Both the position numbers and the translations under genes were made by a program. A stretch of 64,000 nucleotides of DNA from sequence record PZ154897.1. One strand, given 5' to 3'. This document shows positions 5,787 through 60,963 of this stretch, piece after piece (position 1 is the first letter of the stretch; each line of letters starts with the position of its first letter). This DNA comes from a phage. The notes below the pieces were generated by a model, which saw nothing but the letters and a program-made list of their open reading frames with translations, made no database searches and was not told the DNA's origin.

Positions 5787-6046
5787 AGTTCAATCTCAGC
5801 GATTTTCATTTCATTACTATTAATAGCCGCTTTAAGACTATCTGAAAGAATTACATTCCAGTGGTCATTCATATGACCATTAACTAAGCGTGTAATTTCT
5901 TCGGGAGTTGAAAAATAAGGCGTATCAGACTCCCAATGCGATAGTCCCAAGCGAGTATAAATCATACCTTCATCACCGCTAGAATATTCAACTGACACAA
6001 ACTCATCAGTTATTTTATGTTTAGCGTAATAAAATTTAAATTTCAT
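5783..6046 (-). CDS. hypothetical protein (87 aa)
   Basis: ORF with GGAGG SD and early promoter upstream. Confidence 0.55.
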   Translation of the reverse strand: MKFKFYYAKHKITDEFVSVEYSSGDEGMIYTRLGLSHWESDTPYFSTPEEITRLVNGHMNDHWNVILSDSLKAAINSNEMKIAEIEL

Positions 6047-6069
6047 TTTTACTCCTCCGTAGCTGATAG

Positions 6070-6104
6070 TTGTATAGTACCACGGTCCTTGTGGTATGTA
6101 AACT
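6070..6104 (-). promoter_or_regulatory. T4-type early promoter (TTTACA -35 / TACTAT -10)
   Basis: minus strand reads cagTTTACAtaccacaaggaccgtggTACTATA then conserved leader. Confidence 0.6.
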
Positions 6105-6119
6105 GTTTTGTGAAAATTT

Positions 6120-6677
6120 TTAAATGGAAAGATACCATCCGTTGTAGTTGCTTTTTCTTACAACCTTACGAAGGTCTTCTCTATCACCGATGAACTTCGG
6201 AGTGTACTGGATGACACCTGGATGAATTTCTTTAGTGTTGAATATAATTATACAGTCAGCGACTTGGTGATTCAGAATGGGCCCTAGATTTATTCCAGAA
6301 CCGTATGGATACTCTCCGCTGCATCCGGTTGTTACCGAAATCCAACGTGAGTCAGTTTGGTGTGTCTTAACTTCTACACGAAGCCCACAGTATTTTGGAT
6401 GCGCCAATACATCCCATGCGTATGTATACGGGTCATTAACATCCTCTTGGCCTTTGTTAACATACCCGCTTAGCCAATCTGCTACAAAAAACTCTGCATA
6501 TACAGCGATACGACATCTTTCAATAACTTCTGCTTTATCCTGATTAGGATTTTGTTTTAAAGAGTATCTTGCTGTATCAGCAATTTTGACCTTCATTTCA
6601 CTAGTCAAATCATTGTTCGATAGGGTAAATGTTGGAATCTGAAATAGTCTCTGTAAACCCGGATTCGTTTTCTGCAT
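6120..6677 (-). CDS. denB: endonuclease IV (DenB)
   Basis: 185-aa ORF, T4 DenB length; synteny between ndd region and rIIB. Confidence 0.75.
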   Translation of the reverse strand: MQKTNPGLQRLFQIPTFTLSNNDLTSEMKVKIADTARYSLKQNPNQDKAEVIERCRIAVYAEFFVADWLSGYVNKGQEDVNDPYTYAWDVLAHPKYCGLRVEVKTHQTDSRWISVTTGCSGEYPYGSGINLGPILNHQVADCIIIFNTKEIHPGVIQYTPKFIGDREDLRKVVRKSNYNGWYLSI

Positions 6678-6742
6678 TAAACTTTCCTTTTACGTCGGAA
6701 TCACTGATATTCATATAATAAATCATAGTTTCTCTTAAAACA

Positions 6743-6760
6743 AAAGGGCCGAAGCCCTTT
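6743..6760 (-). terminator. intrinsic terminator, UUCG-tetraloop hairpin plus U-tract
   Basis: aaagggc-cgaa-gcccttt; mRNA AAAGGGC UUCG GCCCUUU followed by UGUUUU. Confidence 0.6.
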
Positions 6761-6763
6761 ATT

Positions 6764-6958
6764 TTATTTGAATTGTGCAATTCTTTTCTCTAAACAATCT
6801 GCATAAGATTTCATTGAGATAAACTGCGAAAGCAACAGTTCTTGCTCAACTGCATTAACCGTTGAAAACTTTTCACTTTCTAAAAATTTGCTCAATGCAT
6901 TAATTTTGAGCATTAATTGATCGTATTCTTCTTTTACTCGTGCTTGATAACCTAACAT
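6764..6958 (-). CDS. hypothetical protein (64 aa)
   Basis: ORF between rIIB and denB. Confidence 0.5.
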   Translation of the reverse strand: MLGYQARVKEEYDQLMLKINALSKFLESEKFSTVNAVEQELLLSQFISMKSYADCLEKRIAQFK

Positions 6959-6989: not shown

Positions 6990-7925
6990 TTTAAATTGTT
7001 CAGTAACGTCTTCAACTACTTCGTATTGGCAGGTACGCATTTTAGCATCGTTGTAATCAATTGGAATTGATACTACATCGCGAGGATGTACTTTAACTTT
7101 TACAACTCGGCTGGTTGAACTGCCAAAGTGACGAATATAAGATTTAGAACACACATGCAGACCATGAGAACAAGTTTGTGTATCATCGTCATTCACACGA
7201 GTACGTGGCATTTTAACTACTTTACCCGGACTGTTATCAAAGGTGTTTGAGTGACAGTCAAAGTAATTGCTACGAACTACTTTCCAAGCATAGAAGTAAC
7301 CATCTTCTGTAATTTCAATATCGTTTGCTACCAAGAAATCAAAGAGTCGAGATACCGCTTTTTGGCTTGGGTTTTCCAACAGATTTTCCAAGAACGGAAA
7401 ATAAAATTCAAAGTTTTCGCCTTTTTCCATCGAGTCAAGAATACGATCAACCAAACCAGACCGCAATTCAATATTTTGATAGAACAGGCTTCCACCTTCA
7501 ATTCGAACATCGCCGGAAATATATTTTTCAACAGCGCGACGAACATTAATTTTTTGTGCCGCTTCTTCCAATTTATCTGCAACAAGCAGATTAAGAATTT
7601 CCTGGAAGTTTGAATGAGTATTAGGAGTTGCGTTATAAGTTACACCGTCAACAGTAATTGAAATGAATTTTTTAGATGCATTCCAAATAATGTCAGATTT
7701 AGCAACTGGAGCAATAACTGCATCGCTATTAACTTTAACTGTAATATCACCGCTAATAGTAACTTTAGGGCGTTTAGCTTCTTCAGCATTTTTCAAAACA
7801 CGACGGATTGTGTCAACCGATACATCCTTCCAATAAGCCAATTCCTGTTGGGTGTAATTACCGCTTGAATACAGTTTAACAATTTCAGCTTGTTCGTTTT
7901 TGGTCAGGCATTTAATATTGTACAT
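6987..7925 (-). CDS. rIIB: rIIB membrane-associated protein
   Basis: 312-aa ORF, T4 rIIB length; adjacent to rIIA. Confidence 0.9.
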   Translation of the reverse strand: MYNIKCLTKNEQAEIVKLYSSGNYTQQELAYWKDVSVDTIRRVLKNAEEAKRPKVTISGDITVKVNSDAVIAPVAKSDIIWNASKKFISITVDGVTYNATPNTHSNFQEILNLLVADKLEEAAQKINVRRAVEKYISGDVRIEGGSLFYQNIELRSGLVDRILDSMEKGENFEFYFPFLENLLENPSQKAVSRLFDFLVANDIEITEDGYFYAWKVVRSNYFDCHSNTFDNSPGKVVKMPRTRVNDDDTQTCSHGLHVCSKSYIRHFGSSTSRVVKVKVHPRDVVSIPIDYNDAKMRTCQYEVVEDVTEQFK

Positions 7926-55393: not shown

Positions 55394-55651
55394 TTATTCC
55401 TTAATTCCTAGTACTTGTTTAAAAGTCTCGTCGTAATCAAGACTTTGGCCCGTTTGTTCTTTATGTTTGTATATAATATCACTTACTTCTGATAGCATAT
55501 TTTTATATGAACGAGTTAAAGCAGATTTAAGCACGCTGTATCTATCAGGAAATTTACCGTGTTCATTATAATACGCTATTGCTAATTCACGGACTGCCTT
55601 TTCAGCAATCTCCATATATTCTTTACGCTTTTTCATTTTCTTCTCGGTCAA
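55394..55651 (-). CDS. hypothetical protein (85 aa)
   Basis: ORF. Confidence 0.5.
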
Positions 55652-55940
55652 ATCGGTGTTTGCAATGACGACATTTATAACGAAGAATACTAGTCTGCCA
55701 ATGAACTAATTGTACCTGTTCAGTACCACATTTTGGGCAGTTCGGAACATTCTTAGAAGCCCTTTCGCGGCGTTCAACCATAACCATAATAGCATCCCAT
55801 GCCGGAGGTTTAAAATCTAAATCGTCACAACCATGAATCTTTCCACGCATTTCCAGATCGTCTTCTTCACCAGCCATAATAATTTTAATTAGACTAGAAT
55901 TACTTGAAGCTGCAATGTCTTCTAATAGACGCTTTTTCAT
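55623..55940 (-). CDS. zinc-ribbon protein (105 aa)
   Basis: CPKCG ... CRHCKH zinc-ribbon pattern. Confidence 0.5.
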
Positions 55941-56866
55941 TTCAATACCTCAATAGCATTACGTAAACCATTTGCTTTTGCATTAAGAGCTTTTAACAAT
56001 TTGGTGTGTTCGGCAATCTGGGCTTCAACTTCAACCAATCGAGATTTGAGATATTCACGTTCTTCACTCAGGTTATCAACCTTTTCTACTTTAGGTTCTT
56101 TTACATCTGGCTTATATGTATTAGGGTTCTTCAGTTTAATTAGAATGCGTGAACTGTATAACATTGAACCATTATCTTCGGTTTCGTCATACATTTCCAC
56201 TACGTCCATAATTTTTAGCATCATGCGGAGTTTATAAGACAACGAACGAATAGTTTTGTTATGCTTATTAATTTCTCTAGCATTCATGGTGCCGAGATTA
56301 CGTGAGTAATAATAAGGAACCTGGATATTAATTAATACTGATGAACCACCTGGCTTGTGTGTTACTTCATCAGCAATAACCCAATCCTTAACATGAACTG
56401 TATTTGTACGGTCATCACCCGCGGTAAACAGTTTGCGAGCATGCTTAAAAAGCATATTCACTTGGTCATTGAATTGACAAGCAAATTTATCAGCAAATTT
56501 AGTTTCAGGAATGGTAGATAACCAATCAGCCAAATGAGTCTTTTTAACATCGTTAACAATAGTAAATTCAACCAAATCAGTTATAGATGTCTCAGATTTA
56601 ATAAAGCTCGGCTTCATAAAGTTTTTAATGTTATCGCGAGCTACAGTAGAAGATAACATACGAGAACGTTTAAACCATTCAAGCAAATTGCCTAACGAAT
56701 GAGAATAAGCGTTTTGAGTATCTTTACAGATATGATTTTCCTGGCCAACATATTGAAGGAAATCACGAAGAATATTATTGATTACTGCTCTGTGCCCGAT
56801 TTGATAATTACGGTGTTTAGTAATAAGACTGTCAAAATAATCAATATAATGTTTACGAGTTTTCAT
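55937..56866 (-). CDS. hypothetical protein with C-terminal coiled coil (paralog family member)
   Basis: 309-aa ORF; shares LFKHARKLFTAGD-type motif with neighbours; heptad-rich tail. Confidence 0.55.
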   Translation of the reverse strand: MKTRKHYIDYFDSLITKHRNYQIGHRAVINNILRDFLQYVGQENHICKDTQNAYSHSLGNLLEWFKRSRMLSSTVARDNIKNFMKPSFIKSETSITDLVEFTIVNDVKKTHLADWLSTIPETKFADKFACQFNDQVNMLFKHARKLFTAGDDRTNTVHVKDWVIADEVTHKPGGSSVLINIQVPYYYSRNLGTMNAREINKHNKTIRSLSYKLRMMLKIMDVVEMYDETEDNGSMLYSSRILIKLKNPNTYKPDVKEPKVEKVDNLSEEREYLKSRLVEVEAQIAEHTKLLKALNAKANGLRNAIEVLK

Positions 56867-56918
56867 GTTCTTCTCACTTGGTTAATGATTTATACTCCGA
56901 GCCATCCTTGGCTTTAAA

Positions 56919-57920
56919 TTACTTAATTAATTGTAAAGCTTGTTCCAGACGATCCAGACGATTAACAGATTCTTCCCAAATCCTTTTAGTCTTCTCATAT
57001 TCTTTCTGTGCTTTATTAGAAATTTCTAGAGCTTCTTTATAAGCTTTTTCTAATGCAATAACTTCTGGACGAATTTCTACCGGTTCAGGTGAATCGTCAA
57101 GACATTCCATTAGTTCCTCAAGGGTAGTTTCTTCTTTAGGAGTATTCACAATTTCTTCGCATTTTTGTTGATAAATTTCTTTATCAGTCGGTGAGTACGC
57201 ACGCTTTACTTCACGAAGGCTAATTATAATTTTATATCCTTCCCAACCACACATATTTTTGAAAGGATATGTATGAATACTTTTTACAGTTTCCATACAG
57301 CCCAAAGCCGCCTCTAATTGATAAGTTATAGTGCTAGCAATTGAGAAAAATTTATTAATATTCTTTTGGTTAGCGTTTGGTGTAAAAAATCCATAATTCA
57401 CAAAAATAGCTACTTTATTTTTATCAAGCTCATATTCTTTTACGATAATCATATCAGAAGCCAAAGGATGAATTTGACGATAATCGCCATAGCATAATTT
57501 AGAAGCTGATTTTAGAATTTGTCCTTTAAAAAGTCTGAAATTACTAATCCAACGACGAGTAAAAATATTCTCAGGGTCTTCTTTATTATTAAGATGATAA
57601 GAATTAACATCACCGAACCAATTATATCCTACTACATCTTTAGTTCGTTTAATTTCTTTCCCAAATTTACTAAGAATATCTCTGTTGACTAAGTATGAAA
57701 GAAGACGAGACCCTTTAAAGGTTTTCTTAATGTCTTCTTTATCTGTACGACTAGAAATTTCACGAACTTCATGAATAAATTTGCCAGAAGAAACAATACT
57801 TGCATCAGTATTATTGAGCCATTGATTGATAATAGAAATCAAACTATTCTGACTAGACATAGGTTTAACTTTATCATCAATAACGCTGTTGAACGATTTG
57901 ATATATTCGTTGCGAGTCAT
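56919..57920 (-). CDS. hypothetical protein with C-terminal coiled coil (paralog family member)
   Basis: 333 codons from ATG with GAGGAG SD; RRWISNFRLFKGQILKSASKL motif. Confidence 0.55.
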   Translation of the reverse strand: MTRNEYIKSFNSVIDDKVKPMSSQNSLISIINQWLNNTDASIVSSGKFIHEVREISSRTDKEDIKKTFKGSRLLSYLVNRDILSKFGKEIKRTKDVVGYNWFGDVNSYHLNNKEDPENIFTRRWISNFRLFKGQILKSASKLCYGDYRQIHPLASDMIIVKEYELDKNKVAIFVNYGFFTPNANQKNINKFFSIASTITYQLEAALGCMETVKSIHTYPFKNMCGWEGYKIIISLREVKRAYSPTDKEIYQQKCEEIVNTPKEETTLEELMECLDDSPEPVEIRPEVIALEKAYKEALEISNKAQKEYEKTKRIWEESVNRLDRLEQALQLIK

Positions 57921-57949
57921 ATTAATCTCCTCAGTAGAAAGTAAGAACA

Positions 57950-57979
57950 TTATACCACATCCTTGTGGCAAAGTAAACT
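57950..57979 (-). promoter_or_regulatory. T4-type early promoter (TTTACT -35 / tggTATAAT -10)
   Basis: minus strand TTTACTttgccacaaggatgtggTATAAT; near-identical to promoter at 10352. Confidence 0.65.
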
Positions 57980-59006
57980 AGTTTAGTGCATTTAGTGCAT
58001 TGTTCAGTTTAGAACGTTGCTTCGTGAGATTTTTGACTTTTTCTTGAGCTTTTTCTAGCATCTTTTCAGCTTCTAGCACTTCATTAGTTGCTTTAACGAG
58101 TTCATCATCTACTGCCTTGATAGACTTCTCAATCGCATCTGCATGCCATTTTTCAACAGGTTTAAGACTCGGATTTTCAACAGGAAGAAAATTCACTTTA
58201 TTGAATTTCCATTCATCCTTATTACCTGAACTATACATCCAAAATTTAGGATCGTTTGATAAGTAATTGGATAAATTTAAATTTAAGTTATCTTGCACTT
58301 CCTGCTTTTTCTCTTGCGTGACTTCGTCCTTTCTCAAAAAATCGTATTTAAATGAAACGATCATATCAAGTTCATATGTTGTTGTGTCTAATTTAAATCG
58401 TTCGAAATGCTGTGAAATCTTAGACTGAACAGCAGCAACAACATCCATATACTTAAATGCTTCTGTCAACTGCGATTTAAGGCATTCGCAAATTGAAAGA
58501 GAATTTTTTGTATTAGGTTTAAAGCTAATTCGTGCGGTTCTATTATTTTCTTTTAATGGTCTTACTTCCATCTGAAGAGTATAACCATCAAATTTCAGAT
58601 TCTTTAAATTAATATCAGAACCTTTTAATCGACTCGCAGTTGATAAAATTTGCTTTAATTGCCTACGGAACAGAGCAATAAATCTCCATTCAATACGATA
58701 ATGATTTGGATTGAAAAATCCAGATGATAAATCGACCTTACTTTGGCCAACGCCTTGAACAAATAGAGGATTTTTATAATCAATAGTTTTACAGAAATCG
58801 GTGAGCTGCTCACGAGCAGTCATTTGTGTAATATATCCCGCTTTATTAAAATTACGCACCCATTCACTGCTATTCGTATACTTAAAGTGATGAATAACAC
58901 GATTAACTTTATCAGGGTCTAAATTATTTTCACACAAAAATGTCATAACATCACGAGTATAGCTGGCATTACGAACCATATCTTCAATTTGAGAACGAGT
59001 TTTCAT
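57978..59006 (-). CDS. hypothetical protein with C-terminal coiled coil (paralog family member)
   Basis: 342-aa ORF; RIEWRFIALFRRQLKQILSTASRL motif. Confidence 0.55.
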   Translation of the reverse strand: MKTRSQIEDMVRNASYTRDVMTFLCENNLDPDKVNRVIHHFKYTNSSEWVRNFNKAGYITQMTAREQLTDFCKTIDYKNPLFVQGVGQSKVDLSSGFFNPNHYRIEWRFIALFRRQLKQILSTASRLKGSDINLKNLKFDGYTLQMEVRPLKENNRTARISFKPNTKNSLSICECLKSQLTEAFKYMDVVAAVQSKISQHFERFKLDTTTYELDMIVSFKYDFLRKDEVTQEKKQEVQDNLNLNLSNYLSNDPKFWMYSSGNKDEWKFNKVNFLPVENPSLKPVEKWHADAIEKSIKAVDDELVKATNEVLEAEKMLEKAQEKVKNLTKQRSKLNNALNALN

Positions 59007-59014
59007 GGTATTCC

Positions 59015-59941
59015 TTAAGATTTAAGTAAATCAACAATTTTAATTAACTTTTCACGCTCAGATTTAGCTTTACTACTCAGTCCAGATAGTCTGAAAATTT
59101 CATCGTCATATTGTTGAATAGAAATATTCAGCTCTTCAATCTGCTTATTAAAATAATCAATTTGTTCAGAATGTTTTTCGTTACTACGAACTGGTACAGG
59201 TTTTGTAGGCAATTTAGTTGAACTGGATTCATCCGGGCGATAAATTAAAATACAACTTGAACCAATAGGGCATTTAGCACCAGATGAATATTCTAGTGTT
59301 CCAGCTTCTTTTAAAACTTCAAAAGCTAAACAGAGATGATGACCCATATTGACATAATCTGTAGAGCGAGCTCTGATGTAATAATCATCTCCGCGAATAC
59401 TAAATTTAAAGCATTTAAGGTCTTCTGTATTATTGGTCTTAAAAATCATTTGTTTATCTAGACCTTTAGCTAATCGAGCGCCCAATGCTAATAATCGTCG
59501 TTGATTTTCCCACAAATCCGCAATCATTTGATCGAATGATAATTTTGGCATTAGTCGACCATAAAGGTCATATCCTTTATTATAATTACGAAGGATTTCG
59601 CTCGCATTAATACGAGACAACGCTCCAATTTTATTAAGGGCTTTCATAATGCGATTAGATAAACTCATTCCAGACCCGGTTGTTCGCTGCAAATGTTTTT
59701 CTAATCCAAATCCAATATCAACTTTAAACTTATCTAAAATTTCTGCATGAACATCTTTGTCGATAACATTCAAATCCAAAGTTGGGTTAAATCTATGAAA
59801 AAATTTATCTGGCTCTCCACGGCGAAGTACAGTCCATTCATTCATCATTTTTTTATTAACTAATGATTTAATTACTGCATTGACATTATTAATTACTACT
59901 GACATATTTTCCTCACTCAATTTCAATTTTACTAAATACAC
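59015..59941 (-). CDS. hypothetical protein with C-terminal coiled coil (paralog family member)
   Basis: 308-aa ORF; LWENQRRLLALGARLAKG motif. Confidence 0.55.
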   Translation of the reverse strand: MYLVKLKLSEENMSVVINNVNAVIKSLVNKKMMNEWTVLRRGEPDKFFHRFNPTLDLNVIDKDVHAEILDKFKVDIGFGLEKHLQRTTGSGMSLSNRIMKALNKIGALSRINASEILRNYNKGYDLYGRLMPKLSFDQMIADLWENQRRLLALGARLAKGLDKQMIFKTNNTEDLKCFKFSIRGDDYYIRARSTDYVNMGHHLCLAFEVLKEAGTLEYSSGAKCPIGSSCILIYRPDESSSTKLPTKPVPVRSNEKHSEQIDYFNKQIEELNISIQQYDDEIFRLSGLSSKAKSEREKLIKIVDLLKS

Positions 59942-60320
59942 AGAATATGATTGAACAGACTACATAAGCGCCACACACGGATTGAACTAATACCATCCCA
60001 AAGAACCAAACAATATTATCAAACAGTGTCTGTTTTACGTCGAAAGGACGTAAACTTACAGTAATATTATCACCCTTTTCTATTGAAGAATACATCTCTG
60101 GGGAAATATATTCACTAAATCTATAACCGTCTTTGAGTTCATATACGGCAATAAACGATAAACTAGACCCCTTTCCTTGTGTTCCTGTAATGGTATTAAC
60201 TACAGTAACATCATAATCTTTATAATGCATATAATCATTAATTGCGTAATAACCGTATGCAACTACTACACATAAACAACATATCAATAAATTCAATCTT
60301 TTAATTATCAACTGTTTCAT
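59913..60320 (-). CDS. membrane protein (135 aa)
   Basis: hydrophobic segments at both termini. Confidence 0.5.
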   Translation of the reverse strand: MKQLIIKRLNLLICCLCVVVAYGYYAINDYMHYKDYDVTVVNTITGTQGKGSSLSFIAVYELKDGYRFSEYISPEMYSSIEKGDNITVSLRPFDVKQTLFDNIVWFFGMVLVQSVCGAYVVCSIIFCVFSKIEIE

Positions 60321-60375
60321 AATAATCTCAATTAAAAGGGCTTAGAACCATTATACCATCCTTGGTATAAAGCGG

Positions 60376-60903
60376 TTATGCGAGTACCGTCTTTAACCGT
60401 TCTTCAAACTTCCGAAGAGTATTTTGGCGTTCAGCTCTTTGCTTTTTGTAAGTTTCAATACGCTCTGAAATGAGAGTGTATCGTTCATTTACTGATTCTT
60501 TCATAAAATCAGGAATTTCACGAGAAGCTTTAATCTCATCAAATTTATCAATAACAGCTTGCTCTTCAGCAATTAAGTTATCATACATTAAAATATCTTT
60601 CTTGATGAACTCAATATCTTCTTGAGTTACACGAGATAATTTAGATGCTTTATCCTTTTTGTACTGTTCGTTAGTATCACGAGACCAGTGTAATGTACGA
60701 TTTTTATTCGTATTCTTGTAAATTTCTACAATACCAATCTCATCAATAATAACGATCCAATTCCAACGGGATTTGTAAATTTGTCCTCCATCAACAGTGA
60801 TTTCACCTCCGATTGAGATGTCGTTAAAGAACTTACTCTGTACTTCAGATTTAAATTTACCATCGTTGTAATTTACTAAGTTGAAAATATCTTTAGCGTT
60901 CAT
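60376..60903 (-). CDS. hypothetical protein (175 aa) with C-terminal coiled coil
   Basis: ORF with GGAGG SD and early promoter cassette upstream. Confidence 0.55.
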   Translation of the reverse strand: MNAKDIFNLVNYNDGKFKSEVQSKFFNDISIGGEITVDGGQIYKSRWNWIVIIDEIGIVEIYKNTNKNRTLHWSRDTNEQYKKDKASKLSRVTQEDIEFIKKDILMYDNLIAEEQAVIDKFDEIKASREIPDFMKESVNERYTLISERIETYKKQRAERQNTLRKFEERLKTVLA

Positions 60904-60927
60904 TTTCTGTTCCTCCGTAGTTGATAG

Positions 60928-60962
60928 TTGTATAGTACCACAGAGGAACAGTCTTGTAAACC
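60928..60962 (-). promoter_or_regulatory. T4-type early promoter (GTTTAC -35 / TACTAT -10) with 9-bp inverted repeat
   Basis: minus strand GTTTACaagactgttcctctgtggTACTATA; 5' UTR near-identical to that at 5537-5598. Confidence 0.65.
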
Positions 60963-60963
60963 A

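Follow-up and report, generated by a model that had tools for sequence, protein, structure and literature searches.

Tandem paralogues in the nrdC region of T4-like phages: nrdC.3, nrdC.4 and probably nrdC.6 as candidate counter-defence relatives of the anti-Dsr1 gene nrdC.5

The stretch of phage DNA analysed here, 64,000 nucleotides (nt) of sequence record PZ154897.1 (hereafter the window), is that of a Tequatrovirus, and its segment 55937-60903 matches 741 phage records, T4 (NC_000866) among them at 91.6% identity. Five open reading frames (ORFs) of this segment had been proposed, from the sequence alone, to form a tandem family of paralogous proteins with coiled-coil tails. All five are present at the predicted coordinates, all on the minus strand, and synteny with the T4 annotation identifies them as nrdC.3, nrdC.4, nrdC.5, nrdC.6 and nrdC.8. 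The nrdC.3-type product (55937..56866) measures 309 amino acids (aa), with a head of residues ~1-235, a linker and a heptad tail formed by the last 49 aa, and it matches phrog_1435 end to end (E 1e-116). The nrdC.4 orthologue (56919..57920; 333 aa), assigned from its ORF and the T4 annotation, has the same head-linker-tail organization and also matches phrog_1435 end to end (E 4e-164). The third gene, nrdC.5 (57978..59006; 342 aa), is the orthologue, at 95% aa identity and equal position, of the T4 gene with a published anti-Dsr1 function; it matches Pfam family DUF7235 (PF23882) over the complete model (1-307 of 307; 420.5 bits against a gathering threshold of 30 bits; E 5.8e-126), a model that returned no match among the other four window proteins. 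For nrdC.6, the ORF 59015..59941 begins at an upstream GTG overlapping nrdC.7, and here the original prediction requires a correction: the ATG at 59905 is the more likely initiation site, as it has a GAGG Shine-Dalgarno sequence, lies 7 nt past the nrdC.7 stop and is used in the T4 annotation, and it yields a protein of 296 aa (59015..59905) that matches phrog_2257 (E 3e-152). Finally, nrdC.8 (60376..60903) encodes 175 aa; its head is unrelated to the others, and its C-terminal half is helical and heptad-like.

Among these genes, nrdC.3 and nrdC.4 are related at the level of pairwise comparison (BLASTP E 4e-8, 25% identity over 226 aa), beyond which BLAST and phmmer detected nothing between families. 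Precomputed matches to PF26897 (Phage_T4_Y04OP) are carried by homologues of both genes, including P0163, which is 100% identical to the window nrdC.4, and P0179, which is of the nrdC.3 type. Family membership is accordingly PF26897 for nrdC.3 and nrdC.4, DUF7235 for nrdC.5 and PF26899 for nrdC.6, the last being precomputed on all 105 homologues of the window protein, including proteins 97-98% identical to it. To compare the families as profiles, orthologues were taken from T4, Gaprivervirus (SP18, MN01), Dhakavirus (Bp7, JS10), Mosigvirus (SF, ESCO47) and the protein database. The nrdC.3/4 profile aligned to that of nrdC.5 in hhalign with a probability of 87-97%, collinearly over 150-300 columns (E 5.7e-7 from the tool's own hhalign), and at 92.5% with the last 60 residues cut, so that the tail is not required for the signal. 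Reversed or 10-column block-shuffled controls reached at most 3.5% and scored no higher than 26, against 43-59 observed in the runs with enriched alignments. Deep alignments were needed: with very small ones, nrdC.5 came out at ~75% and nrdC.6 gave no match. Iteration of hidden Markov models (HMMs) against a local ORF set left the families unlinked, the best cross match being that of the nrdC.5 HMM to T4 nrdC.3 (E 0.008). When the nrdC.3/4 profile was searched exhaustively with HMMER against 1.84 billion representatives, the family proved narrow by sequence: only 11 proteins were returned at E <= 1e-3, and neither nrdC.5 nor nrdC.6 was reached directly. An IMG/VR scan with nrdC.5 returned close relatives only.

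A bridge between the families is provided by one of these 11 proteins, P0265, which measures 315 aa and is encoded on a metagenome contig (locus L018, 1817-2764). Its head is nrdC.4-like (41.5 bits to the nrdC.3/4 HMM), its tail is nrdC.5-like (32.7 bits; ...TTQRGKLLRAIQALK), and in hhalign it reaches 97-99% with the nrdC.3/4 profile and 97-98% with that of nrdC.5; it is either an intermediate in the evolution of the family or the product of recombination between the head of one paralogue and the tail of another. Because of the profile comparisons, and because P0265 matches both profiles, nrdC.3, nrdC.4 and nrdC.5 form one family. Their heads align at 92-99%, far above shuffled controls and collinearly through both of the motif helices described below, and the original suggestion that a single gene was duplicated in tandem and its copies diverged is well supported by these comparisons for the three genes. 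Their products begin with MKTR (nrdC.3), MTR (nrdC.4) and MKTR (nrdC.5), the two MKTR starts having been noted before. A further rearrangement of the locus was encountered in P0056 (299 aa; 167-kb contig), in which nrdC.5 residues ~147-272 are fused straight to nrdC.3 from 'MLFKHARKLF...'; this corresponds to a deletion of nrdC.4 plus portions of both flanking genes in a circulating T4-like phage.

The recurring basic and aromatic motif that had been pointed out in four of the proteins is borne out, the quoted strings being present and falling into one common column block for nrdC.3, nrdC.4, nrdC.5 and nrdC.6 in profile-profile alignments. As located by hhalign, the core motif helix occupies residues ~125-151 of nrdC.3 (56414..56494; ...KFACQFNDQVNMLFKHARKLFTAGDD), ~120-146 of nrdC.4 (57483..57563; FTRRWISNFRLFKGQILKSASKLCYGD), ~104-131 of nrdC.5 (58614..58697; RIEWRFIALFRRQLKQILSTASRLKGSD) and ~124-150 of nrdC.6 (59456..59536; FDQMIADLWENQRRLLALGARLAKGLD), and AlphaFold2 predicts helices at 105-126 in nrdC.5 and at 124-133 and 135-145 in nrdC.6. 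This helix, motif 2, has the final residues A-[SR]-[KR]-L-x-G-x-D; motif 1 reads TFKGSRLLSYLVNRDILSKFGK in nrdC.4, FNKAGYITQMTAREQLTDFCK in nrdC.5 and LNKIGALSRINASEILRNYNK in nrdC.6. The motif helices are basic in character, and on the aligned sequences motif 2 is a genuine homologous helix.

The position of nrdC.6 as a fourth paralogue is probable, and less certain than that of the other three. Its hhalign probability against the nrdC.3/4 profile depends on the alignment, spanning 9-96%. It is possible, if clearly the less probable reading, that nrdC.6 is no paralogue, that its similar helical tail arose by convergence or recombination, and that the real family comprises nrdC.3, nrdC.4 and nrdC.5 only. 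With the narrower nrdC.6 alignment the probability was only 9-20%, and the direct comparison of nrdC.5 with nrdC.6 gave about 0.7-5%; furthermore, Pfam and PHROGs keep nrdC.6 separate from the others, and P0265 shows that recombination of heads and tails can occur. However, the probability climbs to 70-96% once more distant relatives, from Mosigvirus and Tegunavirus, are included, and the scores, 29-56 over the different alignments, lie above the maximum of 22.3 for the c6/c6x shuffled controls. The same block, nrdC.3/4 ~60-165 against nrdC.6 ~84-170, is aligned in every run and holds the two motifs, while g087 of the Tegunavirus phiR1-RT fits both the nrdC.3/4 and the nrdC.6 profile at 44-50%. 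The order of predicted secondary-structure elements in nrdC.6 is, moreover, that of nrdC.5.

The fifth proposed member fared differently. In hhalign, nrdC.8 scored <1% against each of the four families, and it is thereby ruled out as a family member, so that the proposed family of five shrinks to three well-founded members and a probable fourth. The tail of nrdC.8, which had been described as similar, is indeed periodic (heptad p <0.002), but it is a generic helical heptad tail that follows another register, contains a proline and has a different ending.

For nrdC.3-nrdC.6 the heptad-rich, charged tails are present as predicted. A purpose-built heptad score, compared with composition-matched shuffles, gave p = 0.014 for nrdC.3 (last 49 aa; 55940..56086), 0.016 for nrdC.4 (56922..57068; ending ...RLDRLEQALQLIK), 0.002 for nrdC.5 (residues 283-342; 57981..58160; ending ...KLNNALNALN) and <0.002 for nrdC.6 (residues 243-296; 59018..59179; ending ...KLIKIVDLLKS), and the AlphaFold2 models of nrdC.5 and nrdC.6 show confident helix in this part. 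The last 49 residues of all four proteins form a single unbroken heptad frame, in equal register relative to the terminal L-K, and share the ending L-x-x-[AI]-h-x-h-L-K; this pattern was drawn up after the sequences had been viewed, and its specificity (4 of the 92 window ORFs) is descriptive only. Charged residues make up 35-41% of the tails, and each tail has 0-1 Pro/Gly; with hydrophobic a/d positions over at least four heptads in predicted helix, they fit a coiled-coil pattern, the core of nrdC.4 being weak at the middle heptads, where S, A and T occupy a/d positions. The scarcity of Pro/Gly, the helix predictions and the periodicity contradict a reading of the tails as disordered low-complexity sequence; as modelled, they are helix and would be expected to form a coiled coil.

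When the tail profiles were compared with their C-termini anchored, an offset of zero was best for all but one of the six pairs. With heptad-preserving permutations as the control, tail similarity was mostly non-significant, with only the nrdC.3-nrdC.5 pair reaching p = 0.03, and the tails alone are therefore unable to prove common descent. Far from being the variable part of these proteins, the tails are the most conserved section of each across genera, the tail exceeding the head in every inter-genus comparison. Tail identity is 70-82% against 61-75% for the head in nrdC.3; between genera, it is 60% against 38-50% in nrdC.4 and 60-66% against 25-38% in nrdC.6. Such conservation indicates a constrained, shared function of the tail. 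In the T4 reference sequence, nrdC.6 encodes 275 aa and carries a 1-nt deletion relative to the window (L001 ~7064-7200 compared with window 59015-59200); the frameshift drops the last ~35 residues of the tail, of which an identical copy (ISIQQYDDEIFRLSGLSSKAKSEREKLIKIVDLLKS) persists out of frame. Other 'T4' records encode an intact 296-aa nrdC.6, and the frameshift reflects either a mutation that a laboratory strain acquired recently or a mistake in the reference sequence.

Prediction of the head structures, which had been recommended as a check, was usable for nrdC.6 and poor for nrdC.5. The AlphaFold2 model of nrdC.6 (predicted local distance difference test score, pLDDT, 76; predicted template modelling score 0.65) opens with helices at the N-terminus and continues with the motif helix (124-145), two strands (166-171, 174-179), a helix (187-200) and two further strands (205-210, 218-222); after a disordered linker come helices 243-272 and 278-295. 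The nrdC.5 model, for which the input comprised 17 near-identical sequences, is poor over the first 154 residues (overall pLDDT 49), and it was left out of the fold search because the head prediction had failed. Its confident parts are the motif helix (105-126), strand 157-162, helix 169-185 and strands 190-201 and 209-219, followed by a disordered linker (223-279) and a single long helix (283-341; pLDDT 75-90). Both models present the same order of motif helix, beta-beta-alpha-beta-beta, disordered linker and long helix.

A Foldseek search of BFVD with the nrdC.6 model returned orthologues and then ten uncharacterized proteins of 304-374 aa (E 3.5e-7 to 9e-3) from T4-like phages of Enterobacter, Pectobacterium, Acinetobacter, Klebsiella, Citrobacter, Erwinia, Yersinia and Serratia. 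Gene 124 of Acinetobacter phage DLP3 adjoins a glutaredoxin gene, and its product begins with MTTR and ends with ...LEETIKILSK. The interval between nrdC.11 and nrdC was also found to hold ORFs of 290-370 aa in phiR1-RT (L015, 13224-14210 and 19388-20266), with similar ones in S16 (L013, 15974-17074) and DLP3 (L017, 15393-16424), all with a head plus a heptad tail ending in an L-x-x-h-L-x-x-LK-like sequence. Of these ORFs, only phiR1-RT g087 gave a profile signal; single-sequence hhalign comparisons of phiR1-RT g098 and of the S16 and DLP3 candidates brought no clear signal, although their architecture matches. These ORFs may be very distant superfamily members, and the head-tail architecture seems widespread in Straboviridae despite the lost sequence signal. 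Sequence and structure searches of the PDB found nothing resembling the head, and an NCBIfam search returned nothing above the cut-offs. Residues 30-86 of nrdC.3 showed a weak, sub-threshold likeness to the N-terminal SAM-like core-binding domain of tyrosine recombinases, with 13.6 bits to PF02899 (E 0.086; cut-off 22.3), too low for membership, and 15-18 bits to NCBIfam XerD-type models (E 0.002-0.012; cut-offs 279-330); the likeness is probably due to chance, though it was seen in two libraries.

As had been anticipated, copy content and sequence vary among related phages. Tequatrovirus carries nrdC.3, 4, 5 and 6; among Mosigvirus, SF has nrdC.3, a divergent nrdC.5 and nrdC.6, and ESCO47 has nrdC.3 and nrdC.6; Dhakavirus and Gaprivervirus possess nrdC.4, a shorter nrdC.5 and nrdC.6; and Jiaodavirus KPV15 has no copy of the four at the corresponding position. 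In Shigella phage SP18 (L007) the nrdC.5-like gene is split into ORFs of 170 aa (6038-6550) and 125 aa (6565-6942), where the close relative MN01 has one 299-aa ORF, and the split reflects a pseudogene or a sequencing error. By number of phage records, nrdC.6 and nrdC.8 (742 each) precede nrdC.5 (582) and nrdC.4 (554). The nrdC.3 gene is dimorphic within Tequatrovirus: the window allele (55937-56866, compared with L001 4001-4927 and L011 8996-9940) is 61% identical in aa sequence to that of T4, at a synonymous divergence (dS) of ~1.1, and 76% identical to that of Mosigvirus SF. As the first 838 nt of the region also match Mosigvirus genomes at ~85%, the sequences suggest an exchange of this allele between genera.

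Diversifying selection, which the original prediction invoked, is not demonstrated. Pairwise ratios of nonsynonymous to synonymous substitution (dN/dS) against five Tequatrovirus relatives were 0.23 for nrdC.3, 0.21 for nrdC.4, 0.16 for nrdC.5 and 0.08 for nrdC.6, compared with 0.00-0.08 for nrdC, nrdC.8 (0.04), nrdC.9, nrdC.10 and nrdC.11. The values of nrdC.3-nrdC.5 are 2-5 times those of neighbouring genes, and these three genes evolve faster, under net purifying selection.

With respect to transcription, nrdC.7, nrdC.6 and nrdC.5 are separated by gaps of 7-8 nt and are therefore probably co-transcribed as one unit. Early-promoter-like sequences occur in the 52-60-nt gaps upstream of nrdC.8, nrdC.7, nrdC.4 and nrdC.3. 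Three of these gaps contain a small hairpin, CCA(CA)-AGGA-(TG)TGG, between GTTTAC-like and TATAAT-like elements. In the nrdC.5-nrdC.4 gap (57949..57977, minus strand) the site reads TTTACT-17-TATAAT with TG and holds the hairpin CCACA-AGGA-TGTGG in its spacer; the core CCA-AGGA-TGG is followed by TATAAA in the nrdC.4-nrdC.3 gap (56902..56911, minus strand) and by TATAAT in the nrdC.8-nrdC.7 gap (60356..60365, minus strand). Five hairpins were counted in the window against ~0.4 expected, with minus-strand copies at 60365, 57968, 56911 and 10373 and a looser match at 7851, the first three preceding nrdC.7, nrdC.4 and nrdC.3, respectively. The hairpin is a candidate promoter spacer, RNA processing site or terminator. 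A sigma-70 promoter scan gave a total of 26 sites, not above the 27 expected by chance, and the promoter-like sites are suggestive by their placement in intergenic gaps alone. Upstream of nrdC.8 (60904-60963) lies a ribosome-binding region with GGAG (ACGGAGGAAC), and the intergenic GGAG of T4 nrdC.8 is reported to undergo moderate cleavage by the RegB endoribonuclease (PMC1702504).

Two neighbours complete the locus. The nrdC.7 gene (59913..60320, minus strand; phrog_2547, T4 annotation), situated between nrdC.8 and nrdC.6, encodes a predicted membrane protein of 135 aa that is no member of the family, and nrdC.2 (55623-55940; 105 aa), with an overlap of 4 nt with the nrdC.3 stop, carries a CxxC...CxxC zinc ribbon at its C-terminus and gave matches below threshold to several zinc-ribbon models of Pfam. 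In many deposited T4-like genomes all nrdC.x genes, including nrdC.3-nrdC.8 and nrdC.11, are labelled 'thioredoxin', because the label was carried over from the gene names; nrdC itself is the sole glutaredoxin/thioredoxin of the set, and the label on the others is a propagated mis-annotation. Similarly, nrdC.8 is placed among the 'nucleotide reductases' in the DRT1 paper.

The functional information on these genes comes from T4. Neither ECOR17 nor MG1655 with the dsr1 gene of ECOR17 allows plating of a T4 clone lacking part of the region (PMC9391042), and plasmid-borne T4 nrdC.5 restores plating of the deletion mutant on MG1655 with dsr1 (Srikant, Guegler & Laub, eLife 2022; PMC9391042). The genes of the array are early and dispensable on laboratory hosts (PMC9391042). 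The host-interaction function that had been proposed for the whole array finds support in nrdC.5, which overcomes Dsr1 in T4. Dsr1 is a SIR2-tetratricopeptide repeat (TPR) protein, and its TPR sensor is reported to recognize the phage major capsid protein (2026 preprint, PMC12803255). As nrdC.5 overcomes Dsr1 and the genes are paralogous, nrdC.3, nrdC.4 and nrdC.6 are candidate counter-defence genes.

On balance, we favour the reading that nrdC.3-nrdC.6 are tandem paralogues which most likely act as dispensable host-range or counter-defence proteins with specific heads and a common tail. One ancestral early gene of T-even-type phages would have given rise to nrdC.3, nrdC.4, nrdC.5 and, less certainly, nrdC.6. 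Each protein possesses a fast-diverging helical and alpha/beta head of ~220-240 residues, without a relative of known structure, followed by a disordered linker and a C-terminal amphipathic helix of ~50 residues with unbroken heptads. The head would recognize a particular host defence protein, which for nrdC.5 would be Dsr1, and the conserved tail would perform a common service, either by oligomerizing to gain avidity or by docking to a partner that all of them share. The paralogy (less certainly for nrdC.6), the common architecture, the conservation of tail over head and the varying copy content are shown by the present analysis. By analogy with DSAD1, the phage protein that blocks the sirtuin DSR2, we infer that the nrdC.5 head binds Dsr1 directly, that the other three genes likewise have counter-defence roles, directed at different host factors, and that the tail forms a coiled coil.

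A number of observations weigh against this interpretation. The functional evidence is limited to nrdC.5 and comes from T4, where the mechanism is possibly indirect, and PDB searches found no structural likeness to known anti-defence proteins. No gene-wide dN/dS exceeds 1, and nrdC.6 is highly conserved (mostly 95-99% identity across Tequatrovirus), which, together with its dN/dS, is untypical of an arms-race gene. The nrdC.6 tail is moreover dispensable in the laboratory, in so far as the frameshift removes it in the T4 reference sequence. To these points are added the low nrdC.6 scores with narrow alignments or against nrdC.5, the failed nrdC.5 head model and the mostly non-significant similarity of the tails beyond the heptad pattern.

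A bolder and decidedly tentative extension is that Straboviridae maintain a modular counter-defence platform, in which the conserved coiled coil would oligomerize interchangeable, quickly diverging heads or dock them to a common partner, each head blocking or decoying a different host immune sensor. One possible set of targets would be the TPR sensors of the Dsr1/Avs7 group, which are diversified and recognize the major capsid protein. Heads and tails would be exchanged among paralogues, with P0265 as an example, and across genera, with the nrdC.3 allele shared with Mosigvirus as another. Were this true, three new anti-defence proteins, nrdC.3, nrdC.4 and nrdC.6, would be gained, each with a target that could be identified.

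It is unlikely that the tails of the four paralogues, possibly with that of nrdC.8, instead pair mutually into one hetero-oligomeric early complex bearing several different heads, in place of independent homo-oligomers. The identical heptad register and common ending (L-x-x-A-h-x-h-L-K), the conservation of tail over head, the co-transcription or adjacency of nrdC.3-nrdC.6 and the equal record numbers of nrdC.6 and nrdC.8 are all compatible with such an assembly. However, copy content differs by genus and some phages retain only nrdC.3 and nrdC.6, so that no fixed stoichiometric complex is conserved, and plasmid-borne nrdC.5 alone rescues growth on Dsr1 hosts in a mutant missing part of the region (PMC9391042). 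Still more improbable is that these are early nucleic-acid-binding or regulatory proteins, acting for example on the host nucleoid or on transcription, with the Dsr1 rescue being indirect. The basic motif helices and the recombinase-like residues of nrdC.3 would fit this explanation, but the scores of the latter (14-18 bits against curated cut-offs of 22-330 bits) concern one paralogue only, the PDB matches include no DNA-binding fold, and the nrdC genes are dispensable on laboratory hosts. Chance likeness among unrelated small phage ORFs with basic helices and charged, low-complexity C-termini can practically be discarded: most pairwise BLAST comparisons are non-significant and the heptad pattern largely accounts for the tail similarity, but chance is refuted for nrdC.3, nrdC.4 and nrdC.5 by the BLASTP match of the first two, by the profile comparisons against controls and by P0265, and the significant periodicity, the confident helix predictions and the conservation of tails above heads speak against it as well.

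The interest of the preferred reading, a family of paralogues with specific heads and a common tail, lies partly in T4 being the reference phage, of which most of the ~130 uncharacterized genes lack a function. With this reading, three 'hypothetical proteins' become well-defined candidates to be taken into counter-defence screens, and a division of labour is predicted, with specificity in the head and a shared function in the tail. In addition, the family definition can be searched for in other T4-like therapy phages, where such genes affect host range.

The closest known system is T4 NrdC.5 itself. The paper on this protein treats nrdC.5 as a single uncharacterized gene; in the literature searched, no link is drawn from it to nrdC.3, nrdC.4 or nrdC.6, neither its head-linker-tail architecture nor its mechanism is described, and no paper gives a function of the other three or connects the four genes. 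In the databases, PF26897 and phrog_1435 already unite nrdC.3 and nrdC.4, PF26899 and phrog_2257 represent nrdC.6, and PHROG 2351 is also listed. The databases list three separate families without a known function, whereas here nrdC.5 is joined to nrdC.3/4, and nrdC.6 tentatively so. A functional parallel is offered by DSAD1 of an SPbeta-group phage, which is reported to inhibit DSR2, a defence sirtuin related to Dsr1 (PMC10973363, PMC10981675, PMC11087589). As there described, it is a phage protein neutralizing a SIR2-type defence that depletes nicotinamide adenine dinucleotide (NAD), and it may serve as a model for the action of nrdC.5 on Dsr1 through sensor binding; sequence or fold similarity to DSAD1 was looked for and not found. 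The T4 dmd-tifA-adfA 'anti-TA (toxin-antitoxin) island', the internal proteins and the alt paralogues are also dispensable clusters in variable regions, several genes of which overcome specific host defences and some of which stem from local duplication (PMC9391042, PMC1524935). Those clusters consist mostly of unrelated small proteins or of ADP-ribosyltransferase copies, whereas the nrdC array consists of 300-340-aa paralogues with a conserved coiled-coil-like tail. Compared with what was known, the present analysis is a modest extension, in which two Pfam families are merged, and a third tentatively added, around a known counter-defence gene.

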